From Pseudomonadota bacterium (GTDB lineage: Bacteria; Bdellovibrionota; FAC87; UBA2466), in contig JAYUGC010000072.1 of assembly GCA_043767805.1 (NCBI GenBank), positions 1-13,996 of the forward strand: 13,996 nt of DNA, written 5' to 3'. Shown here in pieces: positions 1 to 7,206 of the stretch; positions within the stretch are counted from its first letter, which is position 1, and every line of letters begins with the position of its first letter. The notes under the pieces were generated by a model, which was not told the DNA's origin, did no database searches, and saw nothing but the letters and a program-made list of their open reading frames with translations. A program made the translations under genes and the position numbers.

Positions 1-46
1 GGTTCGCGGTCTGGTTGTTCGTGGTTGATTTGAGCTGTTTTGGGTT

Positions 47-72
47 GGGATGTTCCCAAAATGTTCCCATTT
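47..72 (+). repeat. 26-bp direct repeat, copy 1 (GGGATGTTCCCAAAATGTTCCCATTT); probable integrase arm-type site pair
   Basis: Exact match to 7062-7087. Contains TGTTCCCA twice with an 11-bp period. Confidence 0.8.
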
Positions 73-91
73 TCTGTTGGATCGGGCGGAA

Positions 92-139
92 GAGGGATAG
101 GCGGTATTAACGTGCATTCTGGAAGGCGCCTAATAGCCA
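92..139 (-). repeat. oriIS-like end A', exact 48-bp copy of 3822-3869
   Basis: GAGGGATAGGCGGTATTAACGTGCATTCTGGAAGGCGCCTAATAGCCA is identical at both sites. The minus strand ends ACGTTAATACCGCCTATCCCT. Confidence 0.85.
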
Positions 140-226
140 AAGGGAACGGTCTCTAGAGGGTCACATAACGTCGATAACGGCGCTTGAGAGCCGAAGGCAA
201 ATCTAGCGTTTGTCCTGCCTATCCAC
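140..226 (+). repeat. oriIS-like end B', 87-bp copy of 3279-3365 (one mismatch)
   Basis: 86/87 identity (C178 vs T3317). Ends GCGTTTGTCCTGCCTATCCAC, with a GCC-GAA-GGC mini-hairpin at 190-198. Confidence 0.85.
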
Positions 227-286
227 GCTCAGCTATCAAACCAGACGCCGTTACGCCTTCATGGATTACGTTCCTCAAATCCCCGT

Positions 287-430
287 GTGGATAGGCAATT
301 TAGCCGCATGATTTTGTGAACGCTGGCCTGCGGGGAGAACTCTTTTTATACGACGGAGGCGAGGGGATCACCTCTACCATGTTATTACCTCTACCAACCC
401 AAAAACCGGGCTGGCCGGGCCGGGGTCGGC
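287..430 (-). mobile_element. diverged oriIS-like tail C, with no transposase attached
   Basis: The minus strand ends GCGGCTAAATTGCCTATCCAC. Internal GTAGAGGTGATCCCC (363-377, minus) matches GTAGAGTGATCCCC at 3231-3244. Patchy similarity to the transposase 3' tail extends to ~430. Confidence 0.65.
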
Positions 431-543
431 CGCGGACTTCGGTCTACGGAAAGTCGACGCGAATCTTTCCGCAGTTAAAACATTTGACGGTGCCTTTGGC
501 CGTCAGTTTGACCTCGAAAGCTTAAGAAGCGACGGTTTGTCGC

Positions 544-670
544 TTATAGGAAAGCGACTGTCCGTTCGAAGCGGCATCTAAATGTTGAAGCTGGCCTGAA
601 ACCGAGGCAAAATTGGGGTTTTCAAGAAAGTACGGGCCCGAGGCTACTAAAACGCTGACTGCCTATAGAC
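544..670. other. candidate second back-to-back ori doublet (D/E), degenerate
   Basis: TATAGG at 545-550 and CCTATA at 662-667 face outward. The right end has a GCC-CGA-GGC hairpin (636-644) followed by CTGCCTAT, as in end B. Positions 571-598 resemble 303-330 of tail C. Confidence 0.35.
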
Positions 671-708
671 TGTTTTTTTGCATCGCTCGATCTTTAGGAG
701 ACTTTTTA

Positions 709-2547
709 ATGAATACCTCTCGACTGGCTCAGGGCACATTTTGGTTACTTTTCTTACTTGGGTCCATCGGCAGGCATTCGGTTGGTGAAACAAGGTCTCC
801 CCGTCCATACCCCACTGTTTCTCCGAATCCAATGCCAACCGCTCCCCAAATCCCAATCTCGCCAAGTCCGATTCCCGGGGCAAGCGTGTCTCCAACCCCA
901 CCCAGTCCGAATCCAAAACCACCCGCGTCTCCAAGCCCAACCCCAGCAATTCACGGCTGTTCTAATGGAAGCTGCGTACCAGGGGGGCGAGGTGTGTATT
1001 GCCAATCAGGGGACGATACCCCGTGTTTGGTAAAGCGATGTGACGATAGTGGAGTTTGTTCGTTAGGAGGTACAAAACAGGGGTGCGCAACTTTCGCAGA
1101 TTGTAAGTTGGGTTGCAGTACCGAGGGCCAGTGTGTTCCTGGGGGAACGAAGGGGAGTTGTATAACTGGGCGTGATTGCCAAGTCCTTCGATGCCACAGC
1201 AGTGTCCAAGGCCAAGAGTGCATTTTAGGAGGCGAAGGGCGCCCCTGTCTGGATAGAAATGACTGTAATCACTCCACCTGCGGAAATTTCATCCAAGAAT
1301 GCTTGCCCTCTTATTATCCTTCCGCGTCCAATATTGAGTGTCAAAACGATGCTGCCTGCGCCATTGTAACCAACAGATGCAGCACTGACGGGACTGCGCA
1401 GTGTCTCCCTCCACCCGCGCAGCAAGGAGCTCCTTGTCAAACGGACGATCAGTGTGGCGGCCTTCGGTGCACTGGATACGTGTCACGTGGAAAGACCTGC
1501 AAAACCGATGGTGCCACGTGCACTAAAAACGAGGATTGCCAGTTTTATCGCTGCAATAAAGGCAAGTGCACGATGGGGAGCAACTACTATGGGCGCCCCT
1601 GTTCCGGTAATTCAGAATCGGGGTACGAGGAGTGTCAGGCTTACACTTGCGAGGACTTAAATCCGGGAAACGGAGAGCTCAGTAAAATAGTTTGTGTGAT
1701 TAATCACGATGGGCCGGCAAGTGCCAAGCCGTGCGATCCAAAGGCAGACAATCCCTGTGGCCACAAAGTGTGCTCCTCGGGTCAGAATGAGGGGGAATAT
1801 ACTTGCATTAACGGCCCAGGAGCCGGTCACGATGAATGCAAAACGGCTGATGACTGCCCTTTTGTCAGAAAAACCTCGGATGACGAACGACGGGCCAATT
1901 CCACGCGTCCACCAAATTCTCCTCATTTTGCCAGCGCTGGAATTGGTCCTTTCGCAGGAAATGAAGCCGAGAAACCCGAAGTCGCTATCAGGCTATTAGG
2001 CAAGCTCGATGGCCCGCGGCCAACTCTAGGGAAAAAGACGGCACCGGTGCACATGTACCTGTTTCAGGATCTAGCCTGCGGAATGTGCAAGAATTTTTAT
2101 AGAAAGACGATGGCTGAGTTTGAAAAACTTTATCTTAGTAAGGGCAAAGTTTATCTGACTTTCGTGGAGTTTCCTCTGGGGATGATGGCTGGCAGCACGC
2201 GACTTGCCGAGACCGCACTCTGTGCAAAGGACGAGGGGAAGTACGAGCAGTTTTTGAAGCTTGATTTGGAAGATGATGCCAATACGGAAGATTTCAAAAT
2301 CGCGGAAGCGCGGGTGAAGGTATACAAGAAAAAATTGGGTCTCAATTCAGCCAGATTCAATTCTTGTTTGAAAAATCACAAATACCTGCCGCTAATCAAG
2401 GAGGGCTTCGAAATCGGGGAAAAGCTCCAAGTACGCGGAACGCCGAGCTATTTTATAAATGGGAAATCCAAGGGGGGAACGAAACCCTTCAAAGATTTCC
2501 AAAAACTCATCGAAGAAGCCTTGAGCGCCGAACAAACTCGGAGTTGA
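709..2547 (+). CDS. secreted cysteine-rich repeat protein with a C-terminal DsbA-like (thioredoxin-fold) domain
   Basis: AGGAG RBS precedes ATG709, preferred over the TTG at 613. The protein has a hydrophobic signal peptide, a Pro/Ser linker and ten 4-Cys repeats (958-1857). These are followed by TLGKKTAPV...FQDLACGMC and VRGTPSYFING, typical of DsbA/Thioredoxin_4 domains. Confidence 0.85.
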   Translation: MNTSRLAQGTFWLLFLLGSIGRHSVGETRSPRPYPTVSPNPMPTAPQIPISPSPIPGASVSPTPPSPNPKPPASPSPTPAIHGCSNGSCVPGGRGVYCQSGDDTPCLVKRCDDSGVCSLGGTKQGCATFADCKLGCSTEGQCVPGGTKGSCITGRDCQVLRCHSSVQGQECILGGEGRPCLDRNDCNHSTCGNFIQECLPSYYPSASNIECQNDAACAIVTNRCSTDGTAQCLPPPAQQGAPCQTDDQCGGLRCTGYVSRGKTCKTDGATCTKNEDCQFYRCNKGKCTMGSNYYGRPCSGNSESGYEECQAYTCEDLNPGNGELSKIVCVINHDGPASAKPCDPKADNPCGHKVCSSGQNEGEYTCINGPGAGHDECKTADDCPFVRKTSDDERRANSTRPPNSPHFASAGIGPFAGNEAEKPEVAIRLLGKLDGPRPTLGKKTAPVHMYLFQDLACGMCKNFYRKTMAEFEKLYLSKGKVYLTFVEFPLGMMAGSTRLAETALCAKDEGKYEQFLKLDLEDDANTEDFKIAEARVKVYKKKLGLNSARFNSCLKNHKYLPLIKEGFEIGEKLQVRGTPSYFINGKSKGGTKPFKDFQKLIEEALSAEQTRS

Positions 2548-2572
2548 CACTGTACGGGCAAACGGTCGCCGG

Positions 2573-3201
2573 TTAAAGCCAACCGCAAATGCGGAGAAAT
2601 CGGCTCAGCAAAATACCGCCGTTGCTTGAAGGTGAGGGGGCGCGATTGCCCAAAGCACTCGGGAGAGGCAGTTTTTTCAGCCGCTTGTATTGCTCCGGAA
2701 TGTGGCGGTGGAGAGCGGCGTAGAAGGCTCGCTGGTTCTTGGCGTCGGGAAACTTGCGCAGGGCATTGGCGACCGAGCCGAAAAGGAACTCATCTCCCAG
2801 GGTTACGATCTCCTGTTTGTTGCCCTGGGTATCCTGGATGGAAATGCGATAGTTTCCGTCTCCCGTAGGCTTTACGTTCGGGTCGTTAGGAGAAGGCTTG
2901 CGCAAGAGTCGGTTGAGAAGATCGGGCGTGTTGGAGAGCTTCTGCTTCACGAAACTCTCGTCCCCTTTAAGCTCCGTGCCGCGAACCCGGTGCTGCTCGG
3001 CAACGAGCTTTCCGTTTGTCGGCTTGAGGGACTTGGAGGAATGAGCCTTCTGAACTCAACTTCCGGCACCTGCATGGCATCTCGCGGTAGGGTCATCCCG
3101 GCCGCTCCGAAAGCATTCTCAGGCTTGAGCTCGTCGTCCGCAAGGGACGCGACCGACGTTAGTAGCAAAACGAGACACCAGATGACACTGAATCGTTGCA
3201 T
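2573..3201 (-). pseudogene. probable secreted protein gene split by a frameshift near 3050 (ORFs 2947-3201 and 2573-2950)
   Basis: GAGGGG RBS and signal peptide MQRFSVIWCLVLLLTSVASLA. The downstream ORF's frame stays open back to ~3055 (QKAHSSKSLKPTNGKLVAEQ...), while the first ORF degrades into a Ser-rich tail. Two coupled genes (GTGA overlap) remain possible. Confidence 0.5.
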
Positions 3202-3229
3202 TTGTGGACCCCTCAGTCAGCGCGGAGTC

Positions 3230-3365
3230 CGTAGAGTGATCCCCGCCGTCCCCGGCCCAATCCGCGCGCCCTTTTCGGAAGGGAACGGTCTCTAGAGGGT
3301 CACATAACGTCGATAATGGCGCTTGAGAGCCGAAGGCAAATCTAGCGTTTGTCCTGCCTATCCAC
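3230..3365 (+). mobile_element. oriIS-like tail B (fuller copy), no transposase attached
   Basis: Ends GCGTTTGTCCTGCCTATCCAC. CGTAGAGTGA at 3230-3239 is the inverted copy of 3934-3943 in the transposase tail. An extra TATCCAC follows at 3366-3372. Confidence 0.75.
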
Positions 3366-3821
3366 TATCCACTTTGATATCTCTCGAAGTCGGCATCGAA
3401 TTTTGGCGCTCGCCTGAGAAATCATTGCTGAAGCAATTTCATCTTTAAGTAACCTCATCTCGCTGTCATCCAGGTGAAGAATGACCCCTTGGGAAGTTGG
3501 TTCGGCGCAAAATAATAGGCTTTCGATTTCGGGCTCATATTCGAATTCTTTGCGAAGAAATCTATATTGAGATTGGGTAAAAGAAATGCGTTTCGAACTC
3601 CCTTCTCTTCCTTTTTTCTCTGCCCAAGAAAAATTCCACGGAATATTTGCCCAGCCTCTGATTTCACCGCTCTCGCCGCAATCGGAGCATGACCAACAAA
3701 CCAGTTCATGTGATTTTTGGAGAATGACTTTGATATAGCCCGAACAGAGTCTCCTCTTGGGTCGCCTGCGGCACCGAAGGGCCGTGAGGATTGCGGTGTC
3801 TTTGTTAAGGGCGGTAGCGGC
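3342..3821 (-). pseudogene. 5'-truncated gene for a putative zinc-ribbon protein, not in the ORF track
   Basis: A stop-free frame of ~160 codons reads AATALNKDTAILTALRCRRRPKRRLCSGYIKVILQKSHELVCWSCSDCGESGEIRGWANIPWNF...REISKWIVDRQDKR*. It has no start codon, and the frame closes inside ori A just above 3830. Confidence 0.65.
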
Positions 3822-4013
3822 GAGGGATAGGCGGTATTAACGTGCATTCTGGAAGGCGCCTAATAGCCATAAATTCAAATATCAGCAATAAACCCACAGA
3901 GCCGCTTATGGCGCAGTGGCCCAACTGCGGACTTCACTCTACGATGGAATATTAAGCGGTAGTTTTGCCTGTTTTGGGGAGCCTGGACGGACGGGTCCAT
4001 TGCGTCAGCGGTT

Positions 4014-5476
4014 TCAATCGAAAGACGCTTGGTAAAACTCGTCGGTTTCGGCGGGCGGCACTTCGAACATCGCCATCTGTGGTGGGGCTCGTGGCGGAAA
4101 AAGCTGTGGCGCCTCAGTTGGAAGGCCCAAATGACCACGAACGGCTCTTCGACATGGGAAACGAACCGCATCTTCCCGCCACACGAAGCGCACGCCATGA
4201 TATCGATAGAAAAGGATCTCTTTAAGAGATCCGACCAACTCCGGTTCGGGCGCTCTTGTCTCCCTTCAGCGGATTCACTAGGGGATCCCGGAACTATCCT
4301 TTTTCTATCTTTGAAATTCGGGGCAAAGACCCCGTGGTATCTGAGTAGGTTGGCTCTCGGCGGTGGAATGAGCGCGACCACCTTCTCGACAAGTTCCATG
4401 GGATCAAAGAGCACATGGGTCGTGCCATCGGAGTATTGGGTCTTTAACCGGTAGAGGATTTTCCCATCCTCGGTTTCGCTCAAACGCTCCAGCGCCACCG
4501 GCGGGCGGGCCGTGTAGCGGCAGAGCTTTTCCAACTTATCTCGGTCTTTGCCGTCGATTTTGACGTTGGCGTGAAGGCTGAACCCGTCGCAGACGGAGCA
4601 TCGGTTGCCTATACGGTAAACGTCTCCTTTGGAAGCATCATTGCCAACACGTCTGACTTTTTGCCCAGCTCGTTCTCCCAGAGCTATCCGACTTTGAATC
4701 GAGGCTCCCGTGAGCTCTGCCATGGCCGGCTGCTCAAAGGCAAATGGGCCTTCGGAAAAATCATCGATGCTGTAGCCCTTCTTGGTTAGATACCGAACGA
4801 CTCGATCCCGAATTCGTTGAACCAGAACGGCAATCTCATCTTCCGAAGGATCCGGGACGCGGAAGAATTTCAACTTTCCACGGTCCTCAAAGTACACGCC
4901 GTCCAAGAAAAGGCTATGGAGATGCACGTTGAAATTTATCGCCCCCCCGAACCTCTGAACGAAGGTAATGGCCCCGGTTTTGCCCTGGACCCCCTGTCGT
5001 CTGGCGCGCTTCACGATAGAGTTTGAGACGGTGCGGGCAAAGATTGCGAGCACCCCCGTTACGAGATGGGCCTTATAGGCCAGGACGAATCGGACGGAGA
5101 ACGGGAACGAAATTACCCATTGCCGGATCGAAACGTGCGGGATGACGGAGTCCACCAGGTGGGCCGCCACTTCGTTCATCCGCTTTCCGCCACAAGAGGG
5201 ACAGAAGCCTCTTTTTTTGCACGAGAAGGCGACAAGGCGTTCATCCTTACACGACCCGCACCGCAGGCGAATAAAGCCGTGAGCCAAAATCCCGCAGCGA
5301 AGGTAGGCGTCGACCTACTGGTGGACGTGGCGAGGGAGCGAGACCCGTTCGGGGTCCCTTTGGGAGGCGGCGAGAAAAGTCTCAAAGTTCTCCTGGACCG
5401 CTCGGTACAGAACCGAGCGCTCGGGCTCATGGCGAAAATACCGGGTCGAAAGCGCTGCTGAGAACGAGGAGGCTAC
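4014..5476 (-). pseudogene. IS91-family (ISCR-like) HUH transposase, inactivated
   Basis: Zn-binding RCGSC...SCKKRGFCPSCG, HUH motif NVHLHSL, catalytic LCRYTAR and RYHGVFAPN are present. The N-terminus YFRHEPERSVLYRAVQENFETFLA is cut off by an in-frame TAG at 5315-5317. A frameshift near 4135 puts the natural C-terminus HLGLPTEAPQLFPPRAPPQ...ASFD* (stop 4014) in another frame. No ATG/GTG/TTG lies upstream in frame. Confidence 0.9.
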
Positions 5477-5536
5477 CCCCTCCCTTCAATGCAATGCCCT
5501 CGACCTATGCTGGGGCTTGGGAACTGAACGCAACGC

Positions 5537-5551
5537 GGCCGGGAACCGGCC
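5537..5551. other. perfect GC hairpin GGCCGG-GAA-CCGGCC; candidate terIS structure
   Basis: 6-bp stem ~60 bp upstream of the transposase 5' region, with GAAC/CTTG tetranucleotides nearby. Confidence 0.35.
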
Positions 5552-5715
5552 TTGAGCGGCCAAAATTCGATTCTGGACAGGGACGGGATGGGCGGTTGCG
5601 TCGATGGGCTGGTAAGGCCTGGACGCCCAATACGTGAGAGCGAGCACGACGTCTCTTTTCCCGGCTACCCTTTTCGCAACGGCTTTGTGGGGATGGCAGG
5701 AGGGAATCTACAGAA

Positions 5716-5753: not shown

Positions 5754-6053
5754 CTAAGCGGCCCTCAGTTGAATCCGTGTTCCCGTCGCCGCGATAATTT
5801 TAATAAGCAGATCACATGATACGGATACGGTGGCCTCGTTTTTTACTGCCGAGACCTTGGACCGCGCTACACCCGAGAGTTTAACGATCTCGTTGACACC
5901 CAGATCCGATTCTCGGACGGCTTTGGTGGCAATCTCGGAGAGTTCTGCCTTGTATTTCATCAACGCGATATCACCCTTCGAAAGCCCAAGAATCTTGCCC
6001 AACTCTTCCGGGTTATGGGTGACAGCGTGTTTGGTCTTATTTCTTTTCTTCAC
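5754..6053 (-). CDS. XRE-family HTH protein (HigA-like antitoxin)
   Basis: 99 aa with an HTH segment LGVNEIVKLSGVARSKVSAVKN and a VSCDLLIKII tail. GGAG lies upstream of the GTG start. Confidence 0.75.
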   Translation of the reverse strand: MKKRNKTKHAVTHNPEELGKILGLSKGDIALMKYKAELSEIATKAVRESDLGVNEIVKLSGVARSKVSAVKNEATVSVSCDLLIKIIAATGTRIQLRAA

Positions 6054-6078: not shown

Positions 6079-6384
6079 TCACTGGGCAATCTTAAACTGC
6101 ACCTTGGGATTGATGGTTTCGTTATAGGTGATGAGCTTATCCGTCGAGACTTTGTCGATTCTATGATTAACGATCTCGCTGACTCGTGCCTGATCGATGC
6201 CGAGAAGACTTGCGAAGTCTACTTGGGACAATTCCTTTTCAACCATGTGACGCACCAGATTTTGGCAAAGATCCCACCGGAATCGATCGATCGGAGGGGA
6301 GCTGGGGCCAACCATCACGGTTCCCTGGACGTTCTTCAGCTTTTTGTCCATCTCCGCTAATTTTTTCTTGCTCGGGTAACGCAT
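6079..6384 (-). CDS. XRE-family HTH protein, putative antitoxin
   Basis: LSQVDFASLLGIDQARVSEIVNHRIDKVSTDKL is an HTH. An AGGAG RBS overlaps the restored upstream stop. Confidence 0.85.
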   Translation of the reverse strand: MRYPSKKKLAEMDKKLKNVQGTVMVGPSSPPIDRFRWDLCQNLVRHMVEKELSQVDFASLLGIDQARVSEIVNHRIDKVSTDKLITYNETINPKVQFKIAQ

Positions 6385-6819: not shown

Positions 6820-7125
6820 ATGCTCGATTATTGGATGTACCGCAAAGTTCTGAAGCAGTACTGCCAGGAGGCGAAGGTGGCGGTCATCGCGACCCACGGT
6901 CTACGCCACTCGACGAGTGAGCTGTACCAGACCTACGGCGCAAGCCGCGACGATCTGCGGCAGCTTTTCGCTCACTCATCCGTGAGTACGACTGAGAGAT
7001 ACATCCATCGAAAGAGTGACAGTTTGGGAAAAGTGGCGAAGGTGATCCAGTTGTTTCCCACGGGATGTTCCCAAAATGTTCCCATTTCAAACGCGGATTC
7101 GAAAGGAGGCACTATAACTAGCTAA
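6820..7125 (+). pseudogene. C-terminal fragment of a tyrosine recombinase/integrase
   Basis: THGLRHS (HxxR), FAHSS and TTERY (catalytic Tyr) are present. An in-frame TGA lies at 6778-6780, and the N-terminal two-thirds are absent. Confidence 0.85.
7062..7087 (+). repeat. 26-bp direct repeat, copy 2; probable arm-type sites
   Basis: Identical to 47-72 and 45 bp from the tRNA 3' end. A degenerate third unit (TGTTTCCCA) lies at 7052-7060. Confidence 0.8.
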
Positions 7126-7132
7126 AATTAAT

Positions 7133-7206
7133 TGGGCCCAGTTGGATTCGAACCAACGACCCCCAGATTAGAAATCTGGTGCTCTATCCGACTAAGCTAT
7201 GGGCCC
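7133..7206 (-). tRNA. tRNA-Arg (anticodon TCT); CCA not encoded
   Basis: GGGCCCA acceptor stem, D-arm TAGCTTAGTCGGATAGAGC, anticodon arm CCAGA-TTTCTAA-TCTGG and T-arm GTTGG-TTCGAAT-CCAAC. Confidence 0.96.

Follow-up and report, generated by a model that had tools for sequence, protein, structure and literature searches.

Elements of the IS91/ISCR type carry their origin end, oriIS, on the side downstream of the transposase gene, as described in PMC13181058, PMC6218425 and PMC13393415. According to the account of IS91 given in PMC13181058, in the circles formed by this element the outer terminus of oriIS is linked to that of terIS. For IS801 it is reported that trapped products of one-ended transposition start with a tetranucleotide like that of the left end, that most genomic IS801 fragments do not have this tetranucleotide and were judged to be products of reorganisation, and that such fragments are found clustered on plasmids and in islands (Bardaji et al. 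2011, PMC3189936). In the descriptions of ISCR elements in PMC6218425 and PMC13393415, orphan origin ends mark the junctions between blocks.

The DNA analysed here, the window, is the whole of contig C72 (13,996 bp), one of the 204 contigs of a 4.52-Mb assembly (G000). As the window is a complete contig, the doublet under study, at positions 92-226, lies only 91 bases from a contig end. A repeat search over the whole window found 92-139 to be identical to 3822-3869 (48/48) and 140-226 to match 3279-3365 at 86 of 87 positions, the sole mismatch of the right half being a C at 178 where 3317 has a T. The halves abut at 139/140 with a spacer of zero, and the bases beside the source blocks differ from those of the doublet (g at 3278 against a at 139, t at 3870 against a at 140), so that there is neither overlap nor microhomology at the join. 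Exact repeats of 48 and 87 nt inside 14 kb cannot have arisen by chance. GGATAGGC at 95-102 and GCCTATCC at 217-224 both face outward, and the 8-bp terminal inverted repeat that they form corresponds to two IS91-type origin termini pointing away from each other. At either outer edge a true element terminus meets sequence that has no relation to the source loci; each half therefore arrived by a transposition event specific to the origin end. The two source blocks are separated by a 456-bp spacer (3366-3821) that lies between two convergent ori termini, contains no recognisable gene and has no second match in the 4.52-Mb assembly.

An earlier note on this DNA had described the 48/48 and 86/87 identities with their direct abutment at 139/140, the outward-facing ends with a terminal inverted repeat and the absence of the 456-bp insert from the flanks of the doublet. 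The repeat search reproduced the first of these, and the 8-bp match of the two ends and the uniqueness of the spacer bore out the others. Its remark that the join is the one that circularising 3279-3869 would make is correct as geometry, and its assignment of the ends to an IS91-type (HUH) origin stands, both halves being oriIS ends of IS91/ISCR elements. The doublet consists of two truncated ori modules of different subfamilies, placed tail to tail with their termini outward. The left half, B1 (92-139, minus strand, terminus at 92 facing left), comprises the final 48 nt of a resident element's oriIS end and matches positions 91-138 of an ori-module model on the minus strand (E 0.0017); the right half, A1 (140-226, plus strand, terminus at 226 facing right), comprises the last 87 nt of a solo ori module and matches positions 55-139 (E 8e-12). 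The inner join thus connects module positions that are not homologous, 48 nt from one terminus and 87 nt from the other, and the inner boundaries begin AAGG and TGGC; complete modules begin CCGT or TCGT. Two described arrangements were tried and rejected. A canonical mini-IS91, with terIS and oriIS in the same polarity, does not fit, as there is no terIS in the doublet, and neither does the junction of an IS91 circle, as 139/140 lies well inside both termini.

The left half is the terminal 48 bp of the oriIS tail of an IS91/ISCR-type element, here called IS-1, that runs from 3822 to at least 5450 and is longer than 1.6 kb. Its non-coding tail forms an ori module at 3822-3945 on the minus strand (model positions 2-138, E 1.2e-14), the last 48 nt of which resemble B1. 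Between 3825 and 5440 the DNA is homologous to a relative on a public MAG contig (L014), the homology breaking off at the same terminus, which identifies 3822-3869 as the last 48 bp of the IS-1 tail. The CCTATCCCTC terminus is common to three copies with three different flanks, at 92, at 3822 and at C180:2800. The tail belongs to a Y2 HUH transposase pseudogene of the ISCR/IS91 family at 4014-5431 on the minus strand, which is interrupted by an in-frame stop codon (TAG, 5315-5317) and, near 4127-4136, by a frameshift. The ORF at 3875-5287 on this strand carries the Pfam domains Y2_Tnp (98.4 bits, cut-off 20.9) and Zn_Tnp_IS91 (46.7 bits, cut-off 26.3), that is, it encodes a Y2 HUH transposase in which a zinc-binding domain occupies the N-terminus. 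Of the NCBIfam models, ISCR clade Ia matches best, at 338 bits against a cut-off of 925, the IS91 model also matching below its cut-off, and the protein is about 45% identical to the transposases of plasmid-borne ISVsa3 (ISCR2) and ISCR1. The TAG replaces a conserved Glu, and the transposase ORFs of relatives are open and encode 499-504 aa; the gene is dead, and IS-1 is not autonomous. Apart from this gene, Y2_Tnp matches only a short fragment on C180, and the assembly was found to contain no intact Y2 transposase.

On the terIS side the BLAST homology of IS-1 ends near 5440-5449, which places the left boundary beyond about 5450, and an alignment of the upstream regions suggests that a conserved hairpin-rich sequence lies farther out. 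The possibility that the left half of the doublet is an inverted mimic of the IS-1 terIS was considered and rejected, since an alignment of the left end of IS-1 with its inverted right end scored 16 against a shuffle mean of 15.9, a score reached by 249 of 500 shuffles. Two HTH_37 genes (5754-6053 and 6079-6384), upstream of the transposase and with its orientation, are possible parts of IS-1. An ORF at 3455-3847 on the minus strand, the start of which lies inside the IS-1 end, has no family match.

The right half is the terminal 87 bp of a 137-bp ori module that has no transposase. The complete module, X, occupies 3229-3365 on the plus strand (model positions 2-139, E 2e-25), its last 87 nt resembling A1. 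Further copies occur on C115 and C92, with a partial one on C127, and their shared homology extends about 50 bases further inward than A1, which has lost the inner 50 nt of the module. Contigs from public sequencing runs that carry other copies of X diverge from the window exactly at 3228/3230 and at 3365, and the flanks beyond the X-type terminus CCTATCCAC/T differ between C72, C92, C115, C180 and the public-run contig that diverges at 3365. The last seven bases of the X terminus (TATCCAC) are repeated in tandem just outside it (3359-3372), which could be the trace of an older terminus at the site of insertion. A third module of the window, Z, is also complete and solo and belongs to another subfamily (288-451, minus strand, model positions 2-139, E 2.8e-22). 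Its terminus at 288 faces A1 across 61 bp, and relatives of it are present in G024:C37, G020:C209, G014:C626 and others.

X, Z and related units align with the tails of IS-1 and L014, and ori modules were searched for with a sequence-only model of 139 positions. The five matches in the window are X, Z, the IS-1 tail, A1 and, on the opposite strand, B1; an nhmmer profile of a similar alignment gave 14 module matches in the genome, five of them on C72. Among 34 genomes of the same bacterial family within the Bdellovibrionota, the model found 73 matches in 11, of which 52 are full length, seven contain only the ori side and 11 only the inner side. Modules in the family measure 120-165 nt, start with a (C/T)CGTAGAG-like sequence and end in GCGTTTGTCCTGCCTATCC, both boundaries being conserved, and RNAalifold applied to an alignment of 12 sequences gave no consensus pairs. 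In all three relatives inspected a module lies directly downstream of the Y2 transposase ORF, and a public-run contig continues leftward from an X-like module into the sequence found before it in full elements; this continuity indicates that the modules are the origin tails of full elements. Solo modules outnumber transposase genes by 20 to one in G033, and 12 and three solo modules stand against no transposase gene in G020 and G005. Arrays of modules in the same orientation, 1-6 kb apart, occur in G005:C6, G033:C268, G033:C66, G024:C37, G020:C117 and G031:C279, and close divergent pairs in G010:C62 (a 66-nt fragment, gap of 79 bp) and G033:C38 (gap of 154 bp). In the assembly studied here two ori termini stand in tandem, 66 nt apart, at C127:3893-3990. 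The odd arrangements on C180 (100-190 and 2670-3170) are a module start with a second start 28 nt further on and an ori-side fragment cut at model position 57, nearly as A1 is (55).

The doublet is located at the edge of what appears to be a decayed island. A 26-bp repeat, D3, at 47-72 on the plus strand, 19 nt (73-91) to the left of the doublet, holds two ATGTTCCCA units and is identical to 7062-7087, so that the initial 7 kb of the contig lie between its two copies. The copy at 7062-7087 falls within the 3' end of a fragment encoding the C-terminal part of a tyrosine recombinase (6820-7125), 45 bp from a tRNA-Arg(TCT) gene (7133-7206, minus strand) which this fragment adjoins. D3 may be the end of a tRNA-Arg-linked island, and together the repeats, the tRNA gene and the recombinase fragment give the first 7 kb the look of such an island in decay, with the doublet at its far edge. 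D3-like motifs are also present at C113:50115-50134 and C177:20531-20550, the latter after a partial tRNA, and may be island ends or binding sites of a recombinase. In G005 (C4:2632609-2663725) the 3' part of tRNA-Arg is repeated several times within 30 kb, and in G001 (C1:7943-15797) tRNA-Arg lies about 6.7 kb from its neighbours in the window, which suggests that this tRNA is a recurrent site of island integration. Contigs of three public runs (X1-X3) match the window up to position 82 and then run into unrelated sequence that was not found in the assembly; this continuation may stem from either a paralogous locus or a strain without the island content seen here. The 87-bp end and its direct copy enclose, as cargo, a gene (613-2547, plus strand) for a 644-aa protein, the C-terminal third of which matches Thioredoxin_4/DsbA and, below the cut-off, the NCBIfam family of Rcas_1661 thioredoxin-like (seleno)lipoproteins. 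The N-terminal 440 aa of the protein have no family match. A search of positions 1-700 for an outward promoter of the ISCR1 type returned no sigma-70-like or terminator-like site.

The 139/140 junction occurs once in the assembly. With up to two mismatches (<=2) it was found in one of 401 genomes of the phylum, namely G000 itself, and in none of the 400 others; a junction 22-mer had no match in JGI metagenome contigs or in IMG/VR, and window positions 1-420 had none among PLSDB plasmids. A 23-mer of the A-type terminus was likewise without a match in JGI metagenome contigs. Neither half was matched over most of its length in 60 relatives, G033 alone giving short matches, which cover 21-38 nt at the end of the right half. 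In the relatives neither 227-287 nor any cargo gene was matched, the sole hits being copies of the Z module, and no orthologous empty or ancestral site came to light. Among the Logan contigs of four runs that match window positions 1-5600, none of the 27 pieces listed, 77 more being unlisted, bridges 139/140. The earlier note had taken several copies with different flanks as the sign of mobility and a unique junction, best explained by a single deletion, as what would speak against its reading. A unique junction is what was found, the search of the genome, the phylum genomes, metagenome contigs, IMG/VR and plasmids having returned a single copy.

It is accordingly highly improbable that the doublet is a mobilisable, REPIN-like mini-element of 135 bp with two origins that is moved in trans by a Y2 transposase. 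The exact termini at both edges, beside flanks foreign to the source loci, and the terminal inverted repeat of 8 bp would suit such an element. On the other hand, it is single-copy everywhere searched and has no terIS-like part (the two halves, on opposite strands, align with the ori-side half of the module model alone), the left end of IS-1 is not an inverted copy of its right end, and the assembly is without an intact Y2 transposase, so that the non-autonomous element proposed in the earlier note goes unsupported. The left half measures 48 nt, whereas the length of the IS91 right end described as sufficient in PMC13181058 is 82 nt. The doublet DNA folds no better than its shuffles (z -1.58, with 13 of 200 as good, and z -0.42, with 66 of 200), and only about 8-10 terminal bases pair consistently. 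REPINs form many-copy populations, pair as hairpins and depend on Y1 enzymes; the likeness to them suggested earlier finds no support in a sequence with no significant hairpin and no family of copies, next to a broken Y2 gene rather than a Y1 RAYT. The three weak Y1_Tnp matches in the assembly are all on contigs other than C72. Only slightly less improbable is a 591-bp circle, or a tandem duplication, of 3279-3869 the junction of which was cut at the origin termini and re-inserted. Such a molecule would give exactly the observed join, yet the doublet is not flanked by the 456-bp spacer, no second copy of that spacer exists in the assembly and three steps are required. Moreover, the IS91 circles described in PMC13181058 join termini, not internal points, and here internal points are linked and the termini face outward, which leaves the circular-intermediate footprint of the earlier note unsupported. 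An artefact of assembly or of strain mixing near a contig end of a metagenome-assembled genome is improbable too, if less markedly so. The proximity of the contig start and the different continuation after position 82 in three runs would fit it. However, there is no base in common between the halves at the join, so that only reads containing it would let a graph assembler cross it, and 140-226 differs by one base from 3279-3365. In addition, a run contig covering 197-3257 ties the last 30 nt of A1 to the right flank, and both outer edges lie exactly on element termini, unlike those of a chimera.

The doublet is instead read, with moderate confidence, as an inactive chimeric relic of two truncated oriIS ends, most likely the scar of a deletion between divergently inserted elements. 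It is proposed that a second full copy of an IS-1-type element inserted beside the 26-bp D3 motif, that a second complete ori module lay next to it in divergent orientation and that a single deletion then removed both interiors, leaving an illegitimate join free of microhomology at 139/140; we infer both this order of events and the deletion itself. The near-identity of the halves to copies 3.1-3.7 kb away points to a recent and local origin. Full copies do insert at such sites, given that a public-run contig contains a variant of the IS-1 end 13 nt from a D3 motif which runs on into the body of the element, close divergent pairs of modules in G010 and G033 offer a parallel, and truncation is ordinary in the module family, as the 11 inner-side and seven ori-side matches among the 73 illustrate. 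Both halves retain an intact origin terminus, and the tetranucleotide resembling the left end or target is absent from both of their inner ends; by this yardstick, which is taken from IS801 (PMC3189936) and extended here to the subfamilies of the doublet, both look like products of reorganisation. Against the deletion, a second full element and a second complete module are required, neither of which left a trace, the adjacency of the source-like copies, 456 bp apart, becomes a coincidence, the join has zero microhomology in an assembly in which no Ku gene for end joining was found, and the relatives searched provide no orthologous or ancestral locus. The main rival to the deletion, which is nonetheless considered unlikely, is a pair of abortive 'short-stop' one-ended transpositions from the convergent origins at 3365 (minus strand) and 3822 (plus strand), in which the transfers end after 87 and 48 nt and the strands join one target site and are sealed in one or two events. 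This would account for the 99-100% identity of the halves to two neighbouring sources, and each strand of the doublet begins, at the 5' end, with an origin terminus, as the transferred (bottom) strand does in the account of IS91 in PMC13181058. IS801 is reported to yield right-end miniatures at high frequency by one-ended transposition (PMC3189936), and seven other fragments in the module family have only the ori terminus. Fragments without that terminus are, however, at least as common (11 against seven), as expected of generic decay, the inner ends do not show the terminator-like tetranucleotide of trapped miniatures, the only transposase gene in the assembly is broken, and the cutting and sealing go unexplained where no Ku gene is available for blunt sealing. 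More doubtful still is the specific form in which a Y2 transposase would have nicked both facing origins, 3365 and 3822, and passed both 5' ends to one nearby target before aborting after 87 and 48 nt. It is equally doubtful that such an 'inside-out' event with two origins, which features in no current IS91/ISCR model, took place; if it did, double firing could be a general way for orphan origin ends to seed sites of cassette accretion.

The doublet itself matters little: a deletion scar of the kind preferred here is IS91/ISCR debris, a case in which the ordinary decay of rolling-circle elements has produced a striking permuted repeat. It is a single-copy relic of known kinds of elements, and the orphan ori-module family is the more interesting feature. 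This family of Bdellovibrionota holds a sizeable population of transposase-less origin modules that outnumber the transposase genes, and their arrays show the pattern expected if orphan origin ends serve as landing pads or mark the junctions of gene blocks. Such a landing-pad role has been proposed for ISCR elements in clinical bacteria, and the pattern is seen here in environmental predators. For the locus itself, the 87- and 48-bp direct repeats make the intervening block of 3.1-3.7 kb, with its thioredoxin-like lipoprotein gene, liable to be lost or amplified through recombination.

Compared with described systems, the doublet resembles the REPIN doublets moved by RAYTs (PMC3337134) in having two close, inverted recognition ends of an HUH enzyme, and is unlike them in being single-copy, in having halves that are dissimilar except for about eight terminal bases and in adjoining a Y2 gene. 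It shares with mini-IS91, described in PMC13181058 as a terIS of 89 bp, a marker and an oriIS of 82 bp, a gene-less make-up bounded by ends of the IS91 family; whereas mini-IS91 has one end of each kind with a common polarity, the doublet combines two partial oriIS of opposite polarity and lacks terIS. Like the right-end miniatures of IS801 in Pseudomonas syringae (PMC3189936), the halves have no transposase and keep the intact right (origin) terminus. Unlike the IS801 fragments given there, which measure 229-679 nt, they are only 48 and 87 nt long, and the ends of two subfamilies are fused tail to tail. ISCR1 and ISCR2 (ISVsa3) differ from IS-1 in their setting, its host being an environmental member of the Bdellovibrionota and its surroundings devoid of resistance genes, and the tail of IS-1, about 120 nt after a linker of about 70 nt, differs from the 232 bp of ISCR1. 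The likeness to these elements nevertheless includes a Y2 HUH transposase with about 45% identity and, as ISCR1 is described in PMC6218425, a non-coding tail after the gene that ends in a terminus of the CCTAT(A/C)CC type, a closely similar motif being present about 232 bp after the stop codon in a plasmid copy of ISCR1.
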